From positions 1-44,382 of the IMG/VR virus record IMGVR_UViG_3300036783_000149: a stretch of DNA of 44,382 nt, one strand, 5' to 3'. The notes beneath the pieces were generated by a model. It worked only from the letters and a program-made list of their open reading frames with translations, was not told where the DNA came from and ran no database searches. Origin of the DNA: a virus (lineage: Duplodnaviria; Caudoviricetes). This document shows, piece by piece, positions 1 to 27,405 of this stretch (position 1 is its first letter; each line of letters starts with the position of its first letter). The position numbers and the translations under genes are program-made.

Positions 1-81
1 TGTTGACTGGTCATTTGTAGATATCCAGCTTTCGAGCGGCGGCATTTGTTCGGCTTGGTGCTGTAATTCGCTCGGAAGAGG

Positions 82-4356: not shown

Positions 4357-4625
4357 TGTTTCATTCTTTCTGGCGGTGCTTCGTCGCCGTCATCATACCC
4401 GCGTGTTATAAGTTGAATCACTGTCGCTCTAATCAGACTGCGTTGTGGTTCCTGTAAGCCACCAAGTAAGGCTCGTAGGGCTAAGGCCATGCCGGCGATA
4501 CCAATACCAACCTCAGTGCTGGGTAGTGCTAATTTGGGTAAGGTTTCAATTATCTTGATTGAGAGTTCGTGACTCTCCTCCTTCCAAATCGCGAACTCAT
4601 ATGCAAGGTCATCAAGGCTCTTCAT
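4353..4625 (-). CDS. Hypothetical protein
   Basis: Coupled ORF (ATGA overlaps). Confidence 0.6.
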   Translation of the reverse strand: MKSLDDLAYEFAIWKEESHELSIKIIETLPKLALPSTEVGIGIAGMALALRALLGGLQEPQRSLIRATVIQLITRGYDDGDEAPPERMKQ

Positions 4626-5228: not shown

Positions 5229-5270
5229 AGGCTCGCGCTAAGCACGTGGTTCTCGCCGGCTGATGGGCTT
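5229..5270 (-). ncRNA. Orphan single TIGR-like guide unit
   Basis: + strand aggctcgcgc-taagcacg-tggttctcgc-cggctgat-gggctt; same two repeats and spacing as the arrays at 23.8-25.3 kb; intergenic. Confidence 0.65.
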
Positions 5271-5317
5271 ATATGCCTGTACGGGTTAATTTTTGGTGAA
5301 CTGTGCGGATTTCGTCA

Positions 5318-7273: not shown

Positions 7274-7545
7274 CCGCAACCTTTGTGAGGTGGGTGTGTT
7301 GGATAAATGATTCCGGGAGCATTCATACGTTCTCCTTGAATGCAAAAACCAAGTGGTTGTCCCCAATCCTTATACTTTATCATTGCGGGGTCTTTTAATT
7401 CTTCCTTGTAGCAGGTTAGTATCTCTGCCCAAGCCTCTTTACACTCTTGTATGCTTTCAAAATCACCGCCATTTTTGGTTATTCCCATGTCAGACCAAGT
7501 TACGATCAATAACCAAGCCATGGAATATAGTTTTAAACTTTTCAT
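7270..7545 (-). CDS. Hypothetical protein
   Basis: Coupled ORF. Confidence 0.55.
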   Translation of the reverse strand: MKSLKLYSMAWLLIVTWSDMGITKNGGDFESIQECKEAWAEILTCYKEELKDPAMIKYKDWGQPLGFCIQGERMNAPGIIYPTHPPHKGCG

Positions 7546-7982
7546 CGCCGTTTCAACAGCTTATTACGATGTTCTATATTGGCTTGCATCCCTCCGGGTA
7601 CGCCTACTGCATCACTTGGTGGTCGAGGTATTTTTAATATCAATGGCCTCCATAGATGAAGTGTGTGAGGATGGAAGTTGATATGTTCATTTGTTGGTAC
7701 ATGTAATTGCATGACGGTTTCGTCACCGGTAAAGAAAATGTCTTTGATAAATGACATCTCCTCCCAAGTGGGACAGCGATTTATTAGTGAAACGCTGATA
7801 TGATCCCATGCCCACTTCTTACCCATTTCTTTTAGACCGGACTTACCTGAAGATACGATGCAGCGTAGGTTTTCCCCTTGGTGCGAAAAAACAAACGCAC
7901 CGTAGTCAGCCCCGTAAGGACTCTCATATCCGGCTGGTTGAATACGGAAGGGCTCTGCTTTAAGCCATGGTGTCGGTCGCAT
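7542..7982 (-). CDS. Conserved phage protein (HISVS...RCPTWEEM family)
   Basis: WDHISVS..RCPTWEEM..IKDIFF...HINFHP..LHLWRP. Confidence 0.8.
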   Translation of the reverse strand: MRPTPWLKAEPFRIQPAGYESPYGADYGAFVFSHQGENLRCIVSSGKSGLKEMGKKWAWDHISVSLINRCPTWEEMSFIKDIFFTGDETVMQLHVPTNEHINFHPHTLHLWRPLILKIPRPPSDAVGVPGGMQANIEHRNKLLKRR

Positions 7983-15522: not shown

Positions 15523-15746
15523 TATCCGCCTCGACTGAAGAAAGGTGGGCATATACTGTCGAGTGCATCAACTATACAATGTCCGCAATAGACCTTTTCA
15601 ATTGCTGGTTTGTCGGGATAGGAATCAACCTTGATGGCAATCCCACCGTTTTGTTCGCCATGCCGGCGACAGTAGAACTTACCGCGAGCGGAACCAAAGT
15701 CGAAAGGGATTTTTATTTCTTTATTGTCGTTGGTTTCGTCGCTCAT
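15522..15746 (-). CDS. Small Zn-binding hypothetical protein
   Basis: CRRHG...YCGHC; coupled. Confidence 0.6.
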   Translation of the reverse strand: MSDETNDNKEIKIPFDFGSARGKFYCRRHGEQNGGIAIKVDSYPDKPAIEKVYCGHCIVDALDSICPPFFSRGG

Positions 15747-16150
15747 GGCCAGAAATCCTCATCTAATATTTGTTCAATGGTCCATGTACATGTAGTTGGT
15801 AAGTTTGGATGGCTTACTTGTTTACATCCCCGTCGATAAGCCTTATCTAGTTGGGATATTGCATAGGGACGTAAAGAGGGACTGCTGGTAATACGATCTT
15901 CTAATTGAAAGCGTTGCTCTATAACCGTGTTTTTCCAATTGTTCTCGGAGTAGGGATCGGAGAGATAAGCCAGTTTTAGGAGATGTTCACATATCCGCAT
16001 GAGTCGGCTGGTTACTTCATGCTTTTGGTTAATTCCCAAGGATTCAATCTCCTCAACCAAATTCTCCCAATCCAGTTCATTAACACTGCGGCGGCGTAGG
16101 GCATCTGCTTGCTCTTCTGCCCAAGCCATAAAATCAGTTTTGTAACTCAT
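15743..16150 (-). CDS. DUF29 family protein
   Basis: Y..DF..W.EEQA..L, LDWENL.EEIE, EHLLK, SPSL, WT.EQILD..F.P; start at 16150 overlaps the pol stop. Confidence 0.85.
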   Translation of the reverse strand: MSYKTDFMAWAEEQADALRRRSVNELDWENLVEEIESLGINQKHEVTSRLMRICEHLLKLAYLSDPYSENNWKNTVIEQRFQLEDRITSSPSLRPYAISQLDKAYRRGCKQVSHPNLPTTCTWTIEQILDEDFWP

Positions 16151-18678
16151 AGGAATTCCTTCCTCCGCTCTGGCCAGTTTAATAGGTTCTCGGATGAGAA
16201 TGTACCACATGACTCCATGTCACACCAGTTTGGTCCACGGCTCATCTCGATGGTGAGAGGTACTATAATCCAAGGAAAGCGGACGTTCAACATTTCTTTG
16301 ATAATGATTGGCACGTAATCTTCTAACTGACTTTCTGACTCAAAATAGAATAACAAATCATCATGAATTTGCAGCCGGGGTTGTAGTATCGGATCACCAC
16401 TTTCTGACAACCGATTCATTGCGTCCATTACGACATCAGCAGCAGAGCCTTGCACCATAGAATTGACTACTTGACCTAATCCCAGTGGTGCGCGCCTGCG
16501 CCGACCATTGAGACATGTCGTATATCCAAGTTTCTTGTAGCTATCAATTAGGGTTTCCTGCCATTGTTTGACACCCTGATACTCCTGCCAGAATAAAGCA
16601 TGTTCGGGAGCCAGAATTTCTTCCGGTATGTTGAGATATCCCGATACACTACGTAATGAGGCACTAAAGAATAAAGGGAAGGTCCATTTGTTCTTTACCT
16701 TATCCCGAAAAATCTTGATCGCTTTGGCATCATCCGTATATTGTGATCCTCCAACTGCTTGCGGATAAGCGCGCGCAATGCGCTTCGCCCAATAGCCATG
16801 GACATCCAATCCATCCCATGTTGCTTTACAGTAAGCGGGATCGCGGGATGCACAAGCAATGAGGCGAGCTTCAATCTGACCGTAATCAGCCGATAGGAAA
16901 ATGCCCTTGCCCGCAATTTGGCGACGAGTACTAACTTCATCCCCGCGCTTTGGTACATTTTGGAAGTCACCGTTTAGTCTGCCGGTATCGGTCCACACCG
17001 TACCTAGTGACACATGATACTTTTTGTCGGGATAGGCATTTTCTTCATTAAATCGGTCAACATAGGTACTGAGCATTTTGGTGTAGTGCCGCCAATCGAT
17101 TTGCAATTTACCAAACGGATGATGTAACCCCTCCAACACCGATTTATCGGTTGAACTTACCTCATATAGGCTCATAATGGTGCGTAGGAGGTATAACACC
17201 TCCTTATCGGAACCGGGGTTAAACTTTTGTTGTTTCTGGTGTTCGTACTCGTGGATTTCTGGAAGAGCAAACAGCTTTTCTTCAATCTGCCGTATCTTTT
17301 TCTTTATGTCGAATTGTTGCCTTACGTTTTCCTCGTAATCTATCGGCAATCCGGCAATCTGGGTTAGTACACAGGTTGGTATCTGCCGTAATTTCTCTTC
17401 ATAAGCGGCTTGTAGTCCTTCCCGCTCGATTAGTTCTTGTTGATACTCAAATACCATAAGGTGATATTTGGCATCGATGCCATTGTAAGGTAATAACCGG
17501 CGAATTGGCTCGCTCTTCATATTGTTCATATTCAAGCCGCCGGTAATCTTCTTGATATCGATACCGAAGTACAACTGTGTCAGGAAATCTAGTCCAAACC
17601 CGGCTTTGCGTTCATCAAGAATAAAGGCTTGGGTGAGTGAGTCTTCCCAGCGGGAGTTACGTAGCACTTCGTTGCCAAAATAGAAGGCACTCCATTCCAT
17701 CTCAAAGTGTAATGAATGGGAGCATTTAATTACAGGCGATAGCAGGAATTGCTTAAAGGCAGCCTTTAATGTGGCCTTGTCGTTGGTGCTCCAGGCTGCT
17801 TCGGGATGGTCGAGCGCAAAGGCCAAGCACCGCCCTGGCAGGGCTATAGCAGCCGACAGGATCGCGGCGTCACTACCATAAGGCCGGATGCCTTGAGTCT
17901 CGTAATCGAGCCCGCAACGGGGCTGCTGGGAGGCTTCCTGAAGGAAGCGAAGGACGATGTTTAAACTGTCACCACTGCCGGTGACAAAATCGATGTCACT
18001 GCGGGCATCTTCTACAGTATGGATAGTTGGATAGTGTAAACCCTCCAACACCATATCCAAGGCGCGTTCCATATCGAGCTTGAACGCCAATTCATAGGTG
18101 GAGGGTCGGCCTTCATTCTCATTTCTTAGGCGAAGTAAGTAAGCTGGGTGATGAAATGAGAAGTACCAGCATCGGTGCTTTCCGACTTGTATTGGGAAAT
18201 GCCTACCACGCCATGCATAGGTATTGGAGCGGCCACTCCACGCAAGAGGAATACCACCAAACCCGAAAATTGCATCGGGCTGACTTGCTTCAATGTCACC
18301 CACAACTCTGGTACGACAGAATTCGATTTCGTCATTGGTAGGATTCCGGTTCTCAGGCGGTCGGCAATTTATGACATTGTTCCACCTGATTGCTTGCATA
18401 AATTCATGTGGAATAAAATGTCGGAGCATTGTACCGGATGCCCCGACAAATTGTCTACCAATTTCATCTTCATCGCGTCCCGGAGCTTCACCGAGACTAT
18501 AGATTATCGGATTTACACTGCCGGTGGCATCCATCCTCGGATGATATAAAGTCTTTTTGATCTGGTCGAGCGGACAGGAGATGCAGCCGTTCTTGTATAA
18601 CTGAACCGGTGGGGCGCGCCGGTCTACCTTGGTTTCTTCAAAATCGAATAGTCCGATGCGTTGGTATAAAGCTACCAT
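16147..18678 (-). CDS. Family A DNA polymerase with N-terminal family-4-like uracil-DNA glycosylase domain and 3'-5' exonuclease
   Basis: UDG motifs GEAPG, CRPPENR, HPAYLLR; exo DYET and YN..D; pol TGRL, ADYGQIEARL, QIHDDL. Confidence 0.92.
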   Translation of the reverse strand: MVALYQRIGLFDFEETKVDRRAPPVQLYKNGCISCPLDQIKKTLYHPRMDATGSVNPIIYSLGEAPGRDEDEIGRQFVGASGTMLRHFIPHEFMQAIRWNNVINCRPPENRNPTNDEIEFCRTRVVGDIEASQPDAIFGFGGIPLAWSGRSNTYAWRGRHFPIQVGKHRCWYFSFHHPAYLLRLRNENEGRPSTYELAFKLDMERALDMVLEGLHYPTIHTVEDARSDIDFVTGSGDSLNIVLRFLQEASQQPRCGLDYETQGIRPYGSDAAILSAAIALPGRCLAFALDHPEAAWSTNDKATLKAAFKQFLLSPVIKCSHSLHFEMEWSAFYFGNEVLRNSRWEDSLTQAFILDERKAGFGLDFLTQLYFGIDIKKITGGLNMNNMKSEPIRRLLPYNGIDAKYHLMVFEYQQELIEREGLQAAYEEKLRQIPTCVLTQIAGLPIDYEENVRQQFDIKKKIRQIEEKLFALPEIHEYEHQKQQKFNPGSDKEVLYLLRTIMSLYEVSSTDKSVLEGLHHPFGKLQIDWRHYTKMLSTYVDRFNEENAYPDKKYHVSLGTVWTDTGRLNGDFQNVPKRGDEVSTRRQIAGKGIFLSADYGQIEARLIACASRDPAYCKATWDGLDVHGYWAKRIARAYPQAVGGSQYTDDAKAIKIFRDKVKNKWTFPLFFSASLRSVSGYLNIPEEILAPEHALFWQEYQGVKQWQETLIDSYKKLGYTTCLNGRRRRAPLGLGQVVNSMVQGSAADVVMDAMNRLSESGDPILQPRLQIHDDLLFYFESESQLEDYVPIIIKEMLNVRFPWIIVPLTIEMSRGPNWCDMESCGTFSSENLLNWPERRKEFL

Positions 18679-23639: not shown

Positions 23640-23759
23640 CTATTTCCAATGTATGTTAACGGTTATCGTTTGTGGTGGTCGTGGAATCCAACTGACTATA
23701 TATGATAAGGCGAAAAAAGCCATCATTGTTACTATCATGGCAATGATGGCTTCTCTCAT
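23640..23759 (-). CDS. Small membrane protein (39 aa, MREAIIAMIVTMMAFFALSYIV...)
   Basis: Read manually; AGGAG RBS directly after the array. Confidence 0.5.
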   Translation of the reverse strand: MREAIIAMIVTMMAFFALSYIVSWIPRPPQTITVNIHWK

Positions 23760-23773
23760 TCGTGCTCCTGTTT

Positions 23774-24126
23774 TAGTTCTCGCTGAGTTCAGGACTCGCG
23801 CAAGTCAAAATCTAGTTCTCGTTGGGCATTAGGCTCGCGTTCCTTTTTGAGTTCACGCCTTCCTCCAAGGCTCGCGCTCGGCGTGGGGTTCTCGCTGATT
23901 TTTGGGCTCGTGCTTCTTACGGGGTTCACGCTGGTGGCATGACTCACGCATATCACCGAGTTCTCGCGGGATATCAGGGTTCGCGCTCTAATGGGGGTTC
24001 TCGCATTGTATTGGGCTCGCGCTTATACATGGGTTCTCGCGTCACACAAGGCTCGCGCCTTACTTCAGGTTCTCGCTCGGTGCAGGGCTCGCGGCATCAA
24101 TCAGGGTTCTCGCCCAGTAATTGGCT
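23774..24126 (-). repeat. TIGR-like dual-repeat array, downstream (10 units)
   Basis: gttc(t/a)cgc at 23776, 23815, 23851, 23888, 23924, 23960, 23997, 24033, 24069, 24106, alternating with ggctcgcgc; unique spacers of about 9 nt; period mostly 36-37 nt. Confidence 0.88.
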
Positions 24127-24127
24127 C

Positions 24128-24988
24128 CTACCGAAACGGCGGTGGAATATAACCGCTGTGTCCCAACTTCTCAATTGGAAATGGAGCACGAACCGGTTGA
24201 CCAGTCCTTTCCAACCATATTTCATTCATATGGCTGAGAAAGATTTTGACAGCATAGCGCCGCGCCCGCGCATCAATATGTCCCGGCGGTAGTTTGCCGG
24301 TACTGTAATGCTTGTAGGCTTCAGTGGTCTTGCCGACTCGGGTCATCCATTCTGCGGCGATTTCACTACGCTTACCGCTTTCGCTCATATTGACTTCAAA
24401 CTCTTTGCGCTGGCGGTATAGCTTACCGTAAAAGCAATCATCCCGCCCGCTGAACTTCATAAACGATTGTCCAGAATGCCAGCAGATGGTTTTGAGTCTA
24501 GTGTTGTAGGGACGAAGCTCGCCCTTGTTCCACTTCTTTTGGTCTTTGCCGGCGATGCCAGCAAATTGGTATATCTTACCGGCAGTAGGACGCGGGCCTT
24601 CAAGATGAGCAATGATGCCGGCAGAGATGACCGGACCAATACCAACAACCTGCCGCATCCAATCCCCCATGACATGGCCACGGGTGAATTGATCAAGTGA
24701 CCGTTTGATTTGTCCTTCTAGAGCACTCGACTGCTCAAACAACCAATCGAGTAGGACATGCGGTTCCGGGTGTTGGCCTTTGACATCGGCACCTTTGTCC
24801 AAGGCAAGTCCTTGGCTGTTTGCCCGTTTGCGTTGATTCTGGATGGCGTAGTATTGATCAACCAGAAATCGAGCTTCACCAATACCCATTACACGTGATG
24901 CTGTTGCCAGATCACGCGACAATCGTTTAATGGAAGGAAGATGCTCCGTCCATGTATCATCATCAAATTGTTGGTCTTCAAAGGTCAT
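24128..24988 (-). CDS. Nop-domain/IS110-related RNA-guided protein, TasA-like (no nuclease domain)
   Basis: 286 aa from MTFEDQQ (AGGAG RBS); coiled coil, GIGPVISAGII, FAGIA, YN..LK..CW, GHID.RARR..VK.FL; no RuvC DEDD domain, no catalytic SG motif; flanked by arrays. Confidence 0.8.
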   Translation of the reverse strand: MTFEDQQFDDDTWTEHLPSIKRLSRDLATASRVMGIGEARFLVDQYYAIQNQRKRANSQGLALDKGADVKGQHPEPHVLLDWLFEQSSALEGQIKRSLDQFTRGHVMGDWMRQVVGIGPVISAGIIAHLEGPRPTAGKIYQFAGIAGKDQKKWNKGELRPYNTRLKTICWHSGQSFMKFSGRDDCFYGKLYRQRKEFEVNMSESGKRSEIAAEWMTRVGKTTEAYKHYSTGKLPPGHIDARARRYAVKIFLSHMNEIWLERTGQPVRAPFPIEKLGHSGYIPPPFR

Positions 24989-25000
24989 TGTACTTCTCCT

Positions 25001-25260
25001 TGGGTTAACGCACTTCGTTGGGTTCTCGCTTGGGCAATGGCTCGCGCTCTGCATTAGGTTCTCGCGAAGGCTTGGGCTCGCGCATACAGTAGAGTTCTCG
25101 CTTATAGAATGGCTCACGCGGCGAATCGGGTTCTCGCGGGTAAAGGGTTAGCGCCTTGCTTCAAGTTCTCGCTTCGAGTTTGGCTCACGCGGTGGTATGA
25201 GTTCTCGCACTGCATCGGGCTCGCGCTACCTTTCTGAGTTCTCGCGGTGTTCAAGGCTCC
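25001..25260 (-). repeat. TIGR-like dual-repeat array, upstream (7 units)
   Basis: gttctcgc at 25022, 25058, 25094, 25130, 25165, 25201, 25238, alternating with ggctc(g/a)cgc; 35-37 nt period. Confidence 0.88.
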
Positions 25261-25610
25261 CACCAGAAACATGGTGGTTCTCTATTTTCAAGTTGAATAT
25301 ATCCGTAACGCAATAGGACATCGGGTAGGAATTCATTGAATACGTTCTCGACAAATATACCAGCTAGACCCTCCTTTAATACAAGTTCTCGCATCAATAA
25401 GTCAAATTCCTTAAATTGCCCGGTCCTTCTTGTCTTGTCTTTTAGTATGCTATTGTTTGGTCTTTTTATATTCGTGATATTGGCCATGTCCAGACAATGT
25501 ACATGTCGATCATTAATAAAGCGTTGACTCTTGCGGACATAGACTTTCAAATTGCGGTAACGCACGTAGGCGTTTCTATTTGGTGAGATAAGAAACTCCT
25601 CCAGAGTCAA
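25251..25610 (-). CDS. Hypothetical, possible GNAT-fold protein
   Basis: LDMANI...RRTG.F...IFVENV.N..L...L.RYGY pattern. Confidence 0.6.
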   Translation of the reverse strand: MTLEEFLISPNRNAYVRYRNLKVYVRKSQRFINDRHVHCLDMANITNIKRPNNSILKDKTRRTGQFKEFDLLMRELVLKEGLAGIFVENVFNEFLPDVLLRYGYIQLENREPPCFWWEP

Positions 25611-26023
25611 GGCCAGAAGTCCTTATCTAATATCTGTTCAATTGTCCATGGACAGATTTGTGGTAAATGCAAAAGTCCGGTTTGGTCTTCCGCATCATCC
25701 CTTCCATGTTCATATGCCTTTGTCAGTTCCGACACTGCATAGGGACGGAGTGAAGGACTATCCCCTAGTACCAATCCCAATTCTCGGCGTTGTGTATTTA
25801 TTGTACTACGCCAACTACGGGATTGGTGTTCTGGTTGATAGGACCACTTTAGCAGATGGTGACAGATCAGTTTGAGTCGTGATAACACTTCACGTTTTTC
25901 AGAGCGACTCACAGACTCAATTTCCTCGGCTAAGTTATCCCAATCGAGTTGGTTATGATTGCGCTGACGTAACAATGCGGCTTGTTCTTCTGCCCAAGCA
26001 GAGAAATCACTTTCGTAGGTCAT
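25607..26023 (-). CDS. DUF29 family protein (second copy)
   Basis: YESDF..W.EEQA.LL, LDWDNL.EEIE, HLLKW, SRSW, DSPSL, CPWT.EQILD. Confidence 0.88.
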   Translation of the reverse strand: MTYESDFSAWAEEQAALLRQRNHNQLDWDNLAEEIESVSRSEKREVLSRLKLICHHLLKWSYQPEHQSRSWRSTINTQRRELGLVLGDSPSLRPYAVSELTKAYEHGRDDAEDQTGLLHLPQICPWTIEQILDKDFWP

Positions 26024-26082: not shown

Positions 26083-26571
26083 TCACTTGTTTAATAATTC
26101 TCCTTTTGGTAACGGACGCTGGCGATGTCCGGGAAGGTCAGAGACGGCATTATGTACGTCCCGTTCATCCCAACCAAATGGAATGCGGAGATTTTCATCT
26201 AGTACGCACCAGATATGATATTTGTTGGAGGTATCGACTTTCCGGCTTTCTGCCGGGTATATTTCAACACCTTCACACTCGGGACCAGCAAGTTGGTTTT
26301 TGATTTCTTGAAAGTCCCGCCAATCACGAAACAACACTTTACCATCCCGGCGGCGGATGTTGATTTGCATACAAGGTCCAAGCTTGGGATGTTCAAACCG
26401 TGCTACTGCTACTTGATACTTTTCGTTTACCCAGATCGCTTCGCGGCGCTCCTCATCCATAATGACTTTGGTAGCTTCCTCAATAGAGATGCCTTGGTGT
26501 TTGGCAGTCTTCTTGATCAGTTTGTCATCGTTCTTGAACCCATGAGGGTTGGCTTTTACTAACGGGGTCAC
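26083..26571 (-). CDS. Conserved phage protein (WRDFQ.IKN...E.YPAESR.VD family)
   Basis: RDWRDFQEIKNQL.G.E.EGVEIYPAESR.VD..N.YH.W. Confidence 0.8.
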   Translation of the reverse strand: MTPLVKANPHGFKNDDKLIKKTAKHQGISIEEATKVIMDEERREAIWVNEKYQVAVARFEHPKLGPCMQINIRRRDGKVLFRDWRDFQEIKNQLAGPECEGVEIYPAESRKVDTSNKYHIWCVLDENLRIPFGWDERDVHNAVSDLPGHRQRPLPKGELLNK

Positions 26572-27243: not shown

Positions 27244-27322
27244 TTTCCGCTAACTCCTCAAATTGGCTGTCCCACAATGGGACAGGCTAGTACCTCCCCA
27301 CAAACAACAAGTGTATGTGGGG

Positions 27323-27405
27323 AGGTTCGCGCGGTGGTTTAGGTTCTCGCACTGCATGGGGCTCGCGCGGGCTATTTGGTTCTCGCGTGTGCTAGGGGCT
27401 CGCGT
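27323..27405 (-). repeat. Satellite TIGR-like mini-array (2 units)
   Basis: ggttcgcgc/gttctcgc/ggctcgcgc/gttctcgc/ggctcgcgt at 18-nt spacing; intergenic. Confidence 0.8.

Follow-up and report, generated by a model that had tools for sequence, protein, structure and literature searches.

The window analysed here, a 44,382-nucleotide stretch of a tailed-phage record (IMGVR_UViG_3300036783_000149), carries a well-formed dual-repeat TIGR-TasA locus, in which a 286-aa solo Nop protein lacking a nuclease domain is encoded between two arrays of paired short guides. The locus belongs to a catalogued clade and is one more among several thousand catalogued TIGR loci. The likely function of the system is to bind sites of 16 bp in other mobile elements and to repress those elements without cleavage. 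Rival mobile elements are the likely targets because sites in a prophage-like family of elements are matched by guides from related phages.

Organization of the repeat arrays

On the minus strand, edge-type repeats (consensus GCGCGAGCC) alternate with loop-type repeats (GCGAGAACC) at a spacing of 17-21 nt, mostly 18 nt. Together with short unique spacers, the two short repeats form units that recur about every 36 nt next to the gene. There are 20 such units, situated at four places (7 + 10 + 2 + 1; Table 1). The first-pass annotation had described the alternating repeats with seven units upstream and ten downstream of the 286-aa gene, in agreement with both the repeat calls and the profile scan. 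It counted about 17 guides, having missed the satellite array and the solo unit, and it gave the repeats as 9 nt long with spacers of about 9 nt. The alternation is as described, but the repeats of the clade are 10 nt long (GCGCGAGCCC and GCGAGAACCC), with 8 variable nt per spacer.

Table 1. Features of the TIGR-TasA system in the window
Feature	Position	Strand	Basis
tasA, 286-aa solo Nop/coiled-coil protein, no nuclease domain	24128..24988	-	sequence, fold, alignment
Shine-Dalgarno-like AAGGAG, 7 nt ahead of ATG	24996..25001	-	sequence
Upstream dual-repeat TIGR array, 7 units (U1-U7)	25003..25263	-	repeat calls and profile scan
Downstream dual-repeat TIGR array, 10 units (D1-D10)	23757..24131	-	repeat calls and profile scan
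Terminator-like hairpin with U-rich 3' side, ending the downstream array	23706..23757	-	inverted repeat and folding
Satellite array, 2 units (T1, T2), 2.3 kb upstream of tasA	27324..27405	-	profile scores 46.0, 47.4
Strong hairpin right behind the satellite array, without U-run	27292..27326	-	folding
Solo tigRNA-like unit, about 19 kb from tasA	5230..5274	-	profile score 33.1 vs null maximum 20.7

In the repeat-profile scan of the window the 20 units scored between 25.3 and 49.6, whereas 10 first-order Markov sequences as long as the window reached no more than 20.7. As the profile was built from the 17 units flanking tasA, only the three others count as independent finds.

The upstream array starts with a degenerate edge repeat, and its final edge stops 14 nt ahead of the tasA start codon. 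The downstream array has a truncated first edge, which overlaps the tasA stop codon, and is closed by the terminator-like hairpin (-24.2 kcal/mol, z -4.24), equalled by none of 200 shuffles. Degenerate repeats are found in D9 and U4, among others. The hairpin behind the satellite array is stronger still (region 27262-27330, -37.2 kcal/mol, z -5.61). Satellite unit T2 differs from U2 of the upstream array at two of 16 core positions. The solo unit consists of a truncated edge, a perfect loop repeat and a perfect edge repeat.

The box C/D ends of the repeats are able to pair, with G-C at repeat positions 3 and 8 in 17 of the 20 edges (G-U in two more) and in all 20 loops. Of the 20 edges, 17 can form an extra base pair (13 C-G, 3 U-G and 1 U-A), as can two of the 20 loops; an extra covarying pair in the edge, not in the loop, is the rule reported to separate the two repeat types. 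The tenth repeat base is relaxed in the window, being C in 23/40 repeats as against 23/24, 59/60, 26/28, 62/66 and 40/44 in five relatives. Five distinct loci of the clade have the same repeats ending in CCC and 8 variable nt. The GC..CCC ends are specific to the clade, most other related loci using GA..CCA.

An Rfam search gave no matches. The promoter scan found eight sites where 5.9 ± 2.5 were expected, which is at chance level. One sigma-70-like match (10/12) lies at 24146-24174, in the 3' end of tasA and just ahead of the downstream array. In unit D5 (23949-23986) the motif TGATAT is common to both spacers, so that the predicted target of this unit is an operator-like inverted repeat.

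The TasA protein

The 286-aa start is favored over an in-frame GTG at 25117 by the AAGGAG motif, and an equivalent start is present in 36 of the 37 clade proteins. The frame itself is open upstream (24989-25117), across U5-U7, and from the GTG would encode 329 aa. One clade member, P0012 (406 aa), has about 120 extra residues ahead of the usual start; the representative of its cluster in Table S1 of Faure 2025 is listed in the same extended form.

The protein carries the motifs GIGPVISA and FAGIA. Its AlphaFold model consists of helices only (pLDDT 84, pTM 0.80) and thus has no RuvC sheet. Pfam gave no match at E ≤ 0.1, and the PHROG match is to PHROG 4285, labelled "transposase" (1e-35). Searching 177,635 PDB sequences returned only two matches, TaTasR (9MTY, 3e-11) and SpTasH (9e-10). 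Foldseek found ten matches with E ≤ 0.001, every one a Tas protein, followed by the IS110 recombinases IS621 and ISCro4 (E 0.03-0.05, TM 0.41-0.43). Sequence, model and Foldseek agree on a Tas-type Nop domain with a coiled coil. An N-terminal HNH or RuvC nuclease is absent, as judged from the model, the Pfam scan and the start positions in the clade, and an IS110-type N-terminal RuvC-like DEDD domain was not found in the model or by Foldseek. In IS110 recombinases the catalytic serine loop is located after the FAG motif. Inspection of the corresponding stretch of TasA found no serine between F142 and H171. A TIGR array with a nuclease-less TasA that bears GIGPVISA and FAGIA and lacks both RuvC and the recombinase serine is what the first-pass annotation had proposed. 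The sequence and the all-helical model bear this out, as do the structural comparison with Tas and IS110 that it had asked for and the catalogue of Faure 2025 (Table S1).

In SpTasH, which forms 8-bp duplexes, Y289 and H296 are reported to process the RNA (PMC13421893). These residues align with F270 and H277 of TasA, whose C-terminal loop therefore lacks the Tyr/His dyad. Position 270 is Phe in 32 of the 37 clade proteins and Tyr in 78 of 83 other top homologues. H277 is invariant in the clade, and Y280 is present in all 37 proteins compared to 13 of the 83. TaTasR has W..H..Y in the places of F270, H277 and Y280 and is likewise without the processing tyrosine, showing that this residue does not define the family. 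We infer from the alignments that in this clade the tyrosine may have been relocated, or that processing may be host-assisted. Three further residues, H171, N255 and Y140, are fixed in the clade and found alongside the GC..CCC repeat ends; they may be readers of the changed box C/D bases.

The closest system described is the FpTasA-type dual-repeat TIGR-TasA of Faure 2025 (PMC12045711), reported with a solo Nop protein, alternating edges and loops, a 36-nt period, arrays up- and downstream of the gene, a truncated first edge, a closing terminator and a phage location, all of which are found here. The window clade differs by its GC..CCC ends and the fixed H171, N255 and Y140, and the window by having a satellite array and a solo unit at distances of 2-19 kb. 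SpTasH of Salicola phage CGphi29 (PDB 9W03/9W04; PMC13421893) has the same fold (Foldseek E 2e-7) and 8-nt variable spacers, and its H296 is kept as H277; the window protein, however, has no HNH domain, and F270 takes the place of the catalytic Y289. TaTasR, the best PDB sequence match, shares a C-terminal loop with an aromatic residue other than Tyr, a His, and a Tyr three residues further, but has a RuvC domain and 9 rather than 8 variable nt per spacer. MbTasA and PlTasA (10.64898/2026.09.09.750476; Guan et al., 10.64898/2026.08.11.744272) are also reported as nuclease-free RNA-guided DNA binders, with repression demonstrated for MbTasA (10.64898/2026.09.09.750476), but they use stem-loop arrays. 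The IS110/IS621 bridge recombinases have the Nop/Tnp C-terminal fold in common with TasA. They differ in possessing the RuvC-like DEDD domain and in using one bridge RNA instead of many short guides.

Clade, genomic setting and unit turnover

Among 2,080 TasA homologues the best 36 (57-83% identity) are separated by score from the rest and form the clade. Three of their proteins (loci L001, L002 and L081), 64-67% identical to TasA, are listed in Faure 2025, Table S1 (PMC12045711), under the 50%-identity cluster node12780node, so the clade was already catalogued. It may also be annotated in TIGRSafari or the supplements of 10.64898/2026.09.09.750476. No experiment on this cluster was found in the available text of Faure 2025 or Xu 2026. 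The suggestion of the first-pass annotation that the two-sided arrays and the repeat type mark a distinct variant thus does not hold. The repeat type is that of the catalogued cluster, and two-sided arrays are described in Faure 2025 (PMC12045711) and Xu 2026 (10.64898/2026.09.09.750476). Of 132 related loci that have arrays, 25 have them on both sides, and of 80 related loci at least 10 kb long, 14 have detached chains of units, both counts including duplicates between collections; satellites therefore do not define a variant either. Within the clade, detached units are present in G003 and G004 and absent from G001, G002 and L081. In the related loci L043/L044, L061/L108 and L075/L076, several arrays lie apart from tas, at distances of up to 10 kb, and some of them run on the opposite strand.

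The contig also occurs in a soil-metagenome run, which may be its source. It covers the early/replication arm of a tailed-phage genome, with genes for a polymerase, primase, helicases, clamp, clamp loader, SbcCD, a recombinase and an anti-restriction protein. No structural family matched any of the 63 ORFs scanned, and the contig has no terminal repeat. Two paralogous pairs are present (15743-16210 and 25607-26023; 7542-7982 and 26083-26571), of the families PHROG 11797/DUF29 and PHROG 7839. When ORFs of at least 90 aa are compared, tasA alone is common to the window and G001, G003 and G004, while G002 shares two more genes. This suggests that the cassette moves between unrelated phage backbones. 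No clade member was found in the bacterial genome contigs searched, in which the best match was 51% identical. The best matches of the window ArdC are from Alphaproteobacteria (51-54%), a weak hint of the host.

A sister strain about 98% identical to the window (1-4 differences per 155-430 nt of coding DNA) was found in run X2 of another study. The two differ by whole array units: two units are absent, one is replaced in mid-array and one is extra, each change resting on one contig of depth 2-5. The absent units are D2 and D3, which make up 72 bp once three small changes near D1 are allowed for; on its shorter side the joint spans 34 nt. In D7, spacer A differs at seven of nine positions and spacer B at six of nine, with an identical loop repeat between them. 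The D7 spacers hold 13 of the 15 differences across 23826-24001, and none of the 14 differences listed falls in the spacers of D4, D5, D6 or D8. At D9, 24 letters are replaced by 58, equivalent to about one extra unit. The tasA reading frame is intact, and in the parts of it covered in the sister strain there are 1-4 differences per 155-290 nt and no indel is listed. In run X3, again in one contig of depth 2-5, D4-D7 are identical to those of the window. The replaced unit in mid-array could be a fresh capture, could have come from another array by recombination, or could reflect a longer ancestor from which the two strains lost different units.

Upon comparing six clade records, single spacers were found to recur in the same slot 17 times, compared to 1.4 in shuffles (maximum 7 of 200), often paired with a different partner. 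This pattern points to recombination at the repeats. Copying of guides from neighbouring array DNA was considered and rejected: the best local match had 3/15 (U4) or 4/16 mismatches, and controls were as good.

Targets and mode of action

No target was found for any guide of the window, every search being at chance level. Across 3.57 Mb of related loci, one of 19 window guides matched within one mismatch (0, 1 and 2 in controls). D5 and one other window guide matched in one and two of 401 alphaproteobacterial genomes, respectively (control matches two and one). A scan for the U2/T2 target gave 31 scattered matches with no second window guide close by. For guides of the clade, matches were no more frequent than in controls within 378 kb surrounding alphaproteobacterial Sak4-type genes, and the clade's own pair of guides with exchanged spacers (G004 unit at 413 and L081 unit at 4488) yielded no clear gapless target family. 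The tas genes, as targets of TIGR against TIGR, showed no excess either (7 guides vs 5, 2 and 5). As a separate observation, one guide of L069 (unit at 5234) matches tasA of the window 16/16 at 24654-24669, in conserved M-G-D-W-M-R codons.

A phage mom gene was considered as a target of the clade and set aside as improbable. A central-GC pattern placed four of six matches at the K-V-L-P-L-V codons of Mom-family genes. The same type of pattern for U2/T2 clustered similarly (4/7) in a giant-virus gene, which indicates that such clusters happen by chance. Furthermore, 80 mom loci had no excess over controls, and the sister-lineage geometry tested is gapless. D7 (23877-23913) matches a Mom-family gene (L227:3818) at 15/16, in one of 71 mom genes; D7 and the G004/L081 pair (with a 2-bp gap) match the same Mom motif, probably by chance.

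The target class and the 16-bp geometry consequently rest on a sister lineage outside the clade, whose TasA is 49-53% identical to that of the window. Among 1,497 distinct guides of related loci there are nine pairs in which spacers A and B are exchanged at two or fewer mismatches (controls 0 and 0), and 27 at three or fewer (controls 4 and 2). Examples are G004/L081, L057/L148, L015/L017, L110/L113 and L046/L051. The two guides of such a pair would address a single site, each from a different strand. The simplest reading is that they were captured independently, and exchange of slots by recombination is also possible.

For one of the nine closest pairs a target could be identified. A scan of IMG/VR with its site gave 17 gapless matches, compared to four with a 1-bp gap and five with a 2-bp gap. 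Eight of the 17, which are homologues and not independent, as are the five contigs below, lie in one element family and one gene context, reading Y-H-E-G-F-L, and all differences among the four guide variants are consistent with this peptide (worked out by hand). In five contigs of the family (34.5 kb), eight guides match within one mismatch: three of the seed set and five further guides at 15/16, from L008, L021 (two), L028 and L100 (controls 1, 0 and 0 further guides). With gaps of 1 and 2 bp, the true arrangement gives three and one guides in these contigs. One of these five matches 16/16 in a sixth contig, L286.

The contigs are fragments, 8-20% complete, and carry genes for a serine integrase, DUF2924, a sigma factor, Sak4 and SSB. 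The matches sit in coding sequence on both strands, and the homologues of the matched gene are named from Betaproteobacteria. The fragments of this temperate-phage-like element are L267, L270, L274, L278, L284, L286, L287 and L292, with L324-L328; at least eight guides from L008, L009, L015, L021, L028, L030 and L100 match it as gapless 16-mers, mostly inside 0.9 kb between the sigma-factor and Sak4 genes. This prophage-like family is a candidate natural target family of the sister-lineage guides. Natural tigRNA targets and spacer acquisition are named as open questions in Faure 2025 (PMC12045711) and Xu 2026 (10.64898/2026.09.09.750476), and a literature search that included supplements, with most subscription journals outside its coverage, found none that identifies prophages as natural targets of TIGR guides. 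Of the roles proposed in the first-pass annotation, competition with mobile elements has thereby gained indirect support.

In published homologues, tigRNAs are reported to be 36 nt long, Tas to act as a dimer, and both DNA strands to be paired without a PAM. By analogy, the arrays of the window would be transcribed along with the early/replication genes of the phage, the transcripts cut inside the edge repeats into tigRNAs of about 36 nt, and one tigRNA held by a TasA dimer. Spacer A would pair with one DNA strand and spacer B with the other, no PAM being needed, and the predicted binding would block transcription of rival phages or resident prophages. To judge by the sister lineage, only about 50% identical, the targets would be gapless stretches of 8 + 8 bp from other elements, taken up in one orientation or the other. 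From their identical repeats, the satellite units would be expected to act in trans, bound by this one TasA. Nuclease-free Tas proteins are reported to repress, a chromosomal E. coli gene having been silenced by a reprogrammed Tas, in an assay that used stem-loop TasA/TasR and not dual-repeat TasA (10.64898/2026.09.09.750476).

That silencing of a chromosomal gene is also consistent with the same ribonucleoprotein being aimed at host genes or promoters, for example those of defence, during infection. The position of tasA among early/replication and anti-restriction genes fits this, and so would promoters as targets, as the spacers are AT-richer than the clade genomes (44-47% GC in four relatives with 61-66% GC). 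However, two window guides have no conserved site in the 401 Alphaproteobacteria sampled, which may not include the host, the sole target family identified is a mobile element, and the fast turnover of units between near-identical strains suits moving targets better. Host targeting is accordingly considered unlikely.

A block of replication or recombination, DNA bending or tethering, in place of a block of transcription, is rather improbable. Replication block, DNA bending and ParB links are raised in Faure 2025 (PMC12045711), and the sister-lineage targets lie within genes on both strands, not obviously at promoters. Yet binding within an ORF suffices for repression in the published assays available, and no partner gene accompanies tasA, the only gene shared with G001, G003 and G004. 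Still more doubtful is that the system is decaying or processes RNA poorly, with many units inactive. The relaxed third base of box C (23/40 C), the degenerate repeats D9 and U4 and F270 in place of the catalytic Tyr could be taken as signs of decay, but the reading frame is intact, units are still turning over, and Phe is the clade norm next to an invariant H277 and Y280, as in the active TaTasR (W..H..Y).

There is very little to recommend regulation of the phage's own late and structural genes, for which a contig limited to the replication/early arm and lacking a terminal repeat leaves room: the window has no self-target under four arrangements, all 131 guides of the six clade records lack a match in the record they come from when one mismatch and gaps of 0-4 bp are allowed, matches with two mismatches stay close to what shuffling gives (G004: 7 vs 2.8, controls 1 and 6), and in three relatives that are 98-100% complete 0/75 guides have a self-target within one mismatch.

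Repression of rival mobile elements without cutting is therefore the preferred reading. Going further, dual-repeat TIGR-TasA may be an actively updated anti-prophage memory of phages, which would take up gapless 16-bp sites from other mobile elements whichever way round they lie, gain, lose or swap units at any place in the array, reshuffle half-guides at the repeats, and set down single units at new places in the genome that act in trans; this extension is a real possibility, though somewhat less likely than not. If it is true, the window phage and its sister strain catch the updating of an array in the act.

In a sister lineage, the swapped-orientation search singled out what looks like a genuine target family, with a geometry of 16 bp, and it scales to the published catalogue. 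A predicted PAM-free binder of 286 aa, from a clade without the known processing tyrosine, offers a simple test of dual-repeat tigRNA maturation. The change of whole units in mid-array between near-identical strains bears on how the arrays gain spacers.
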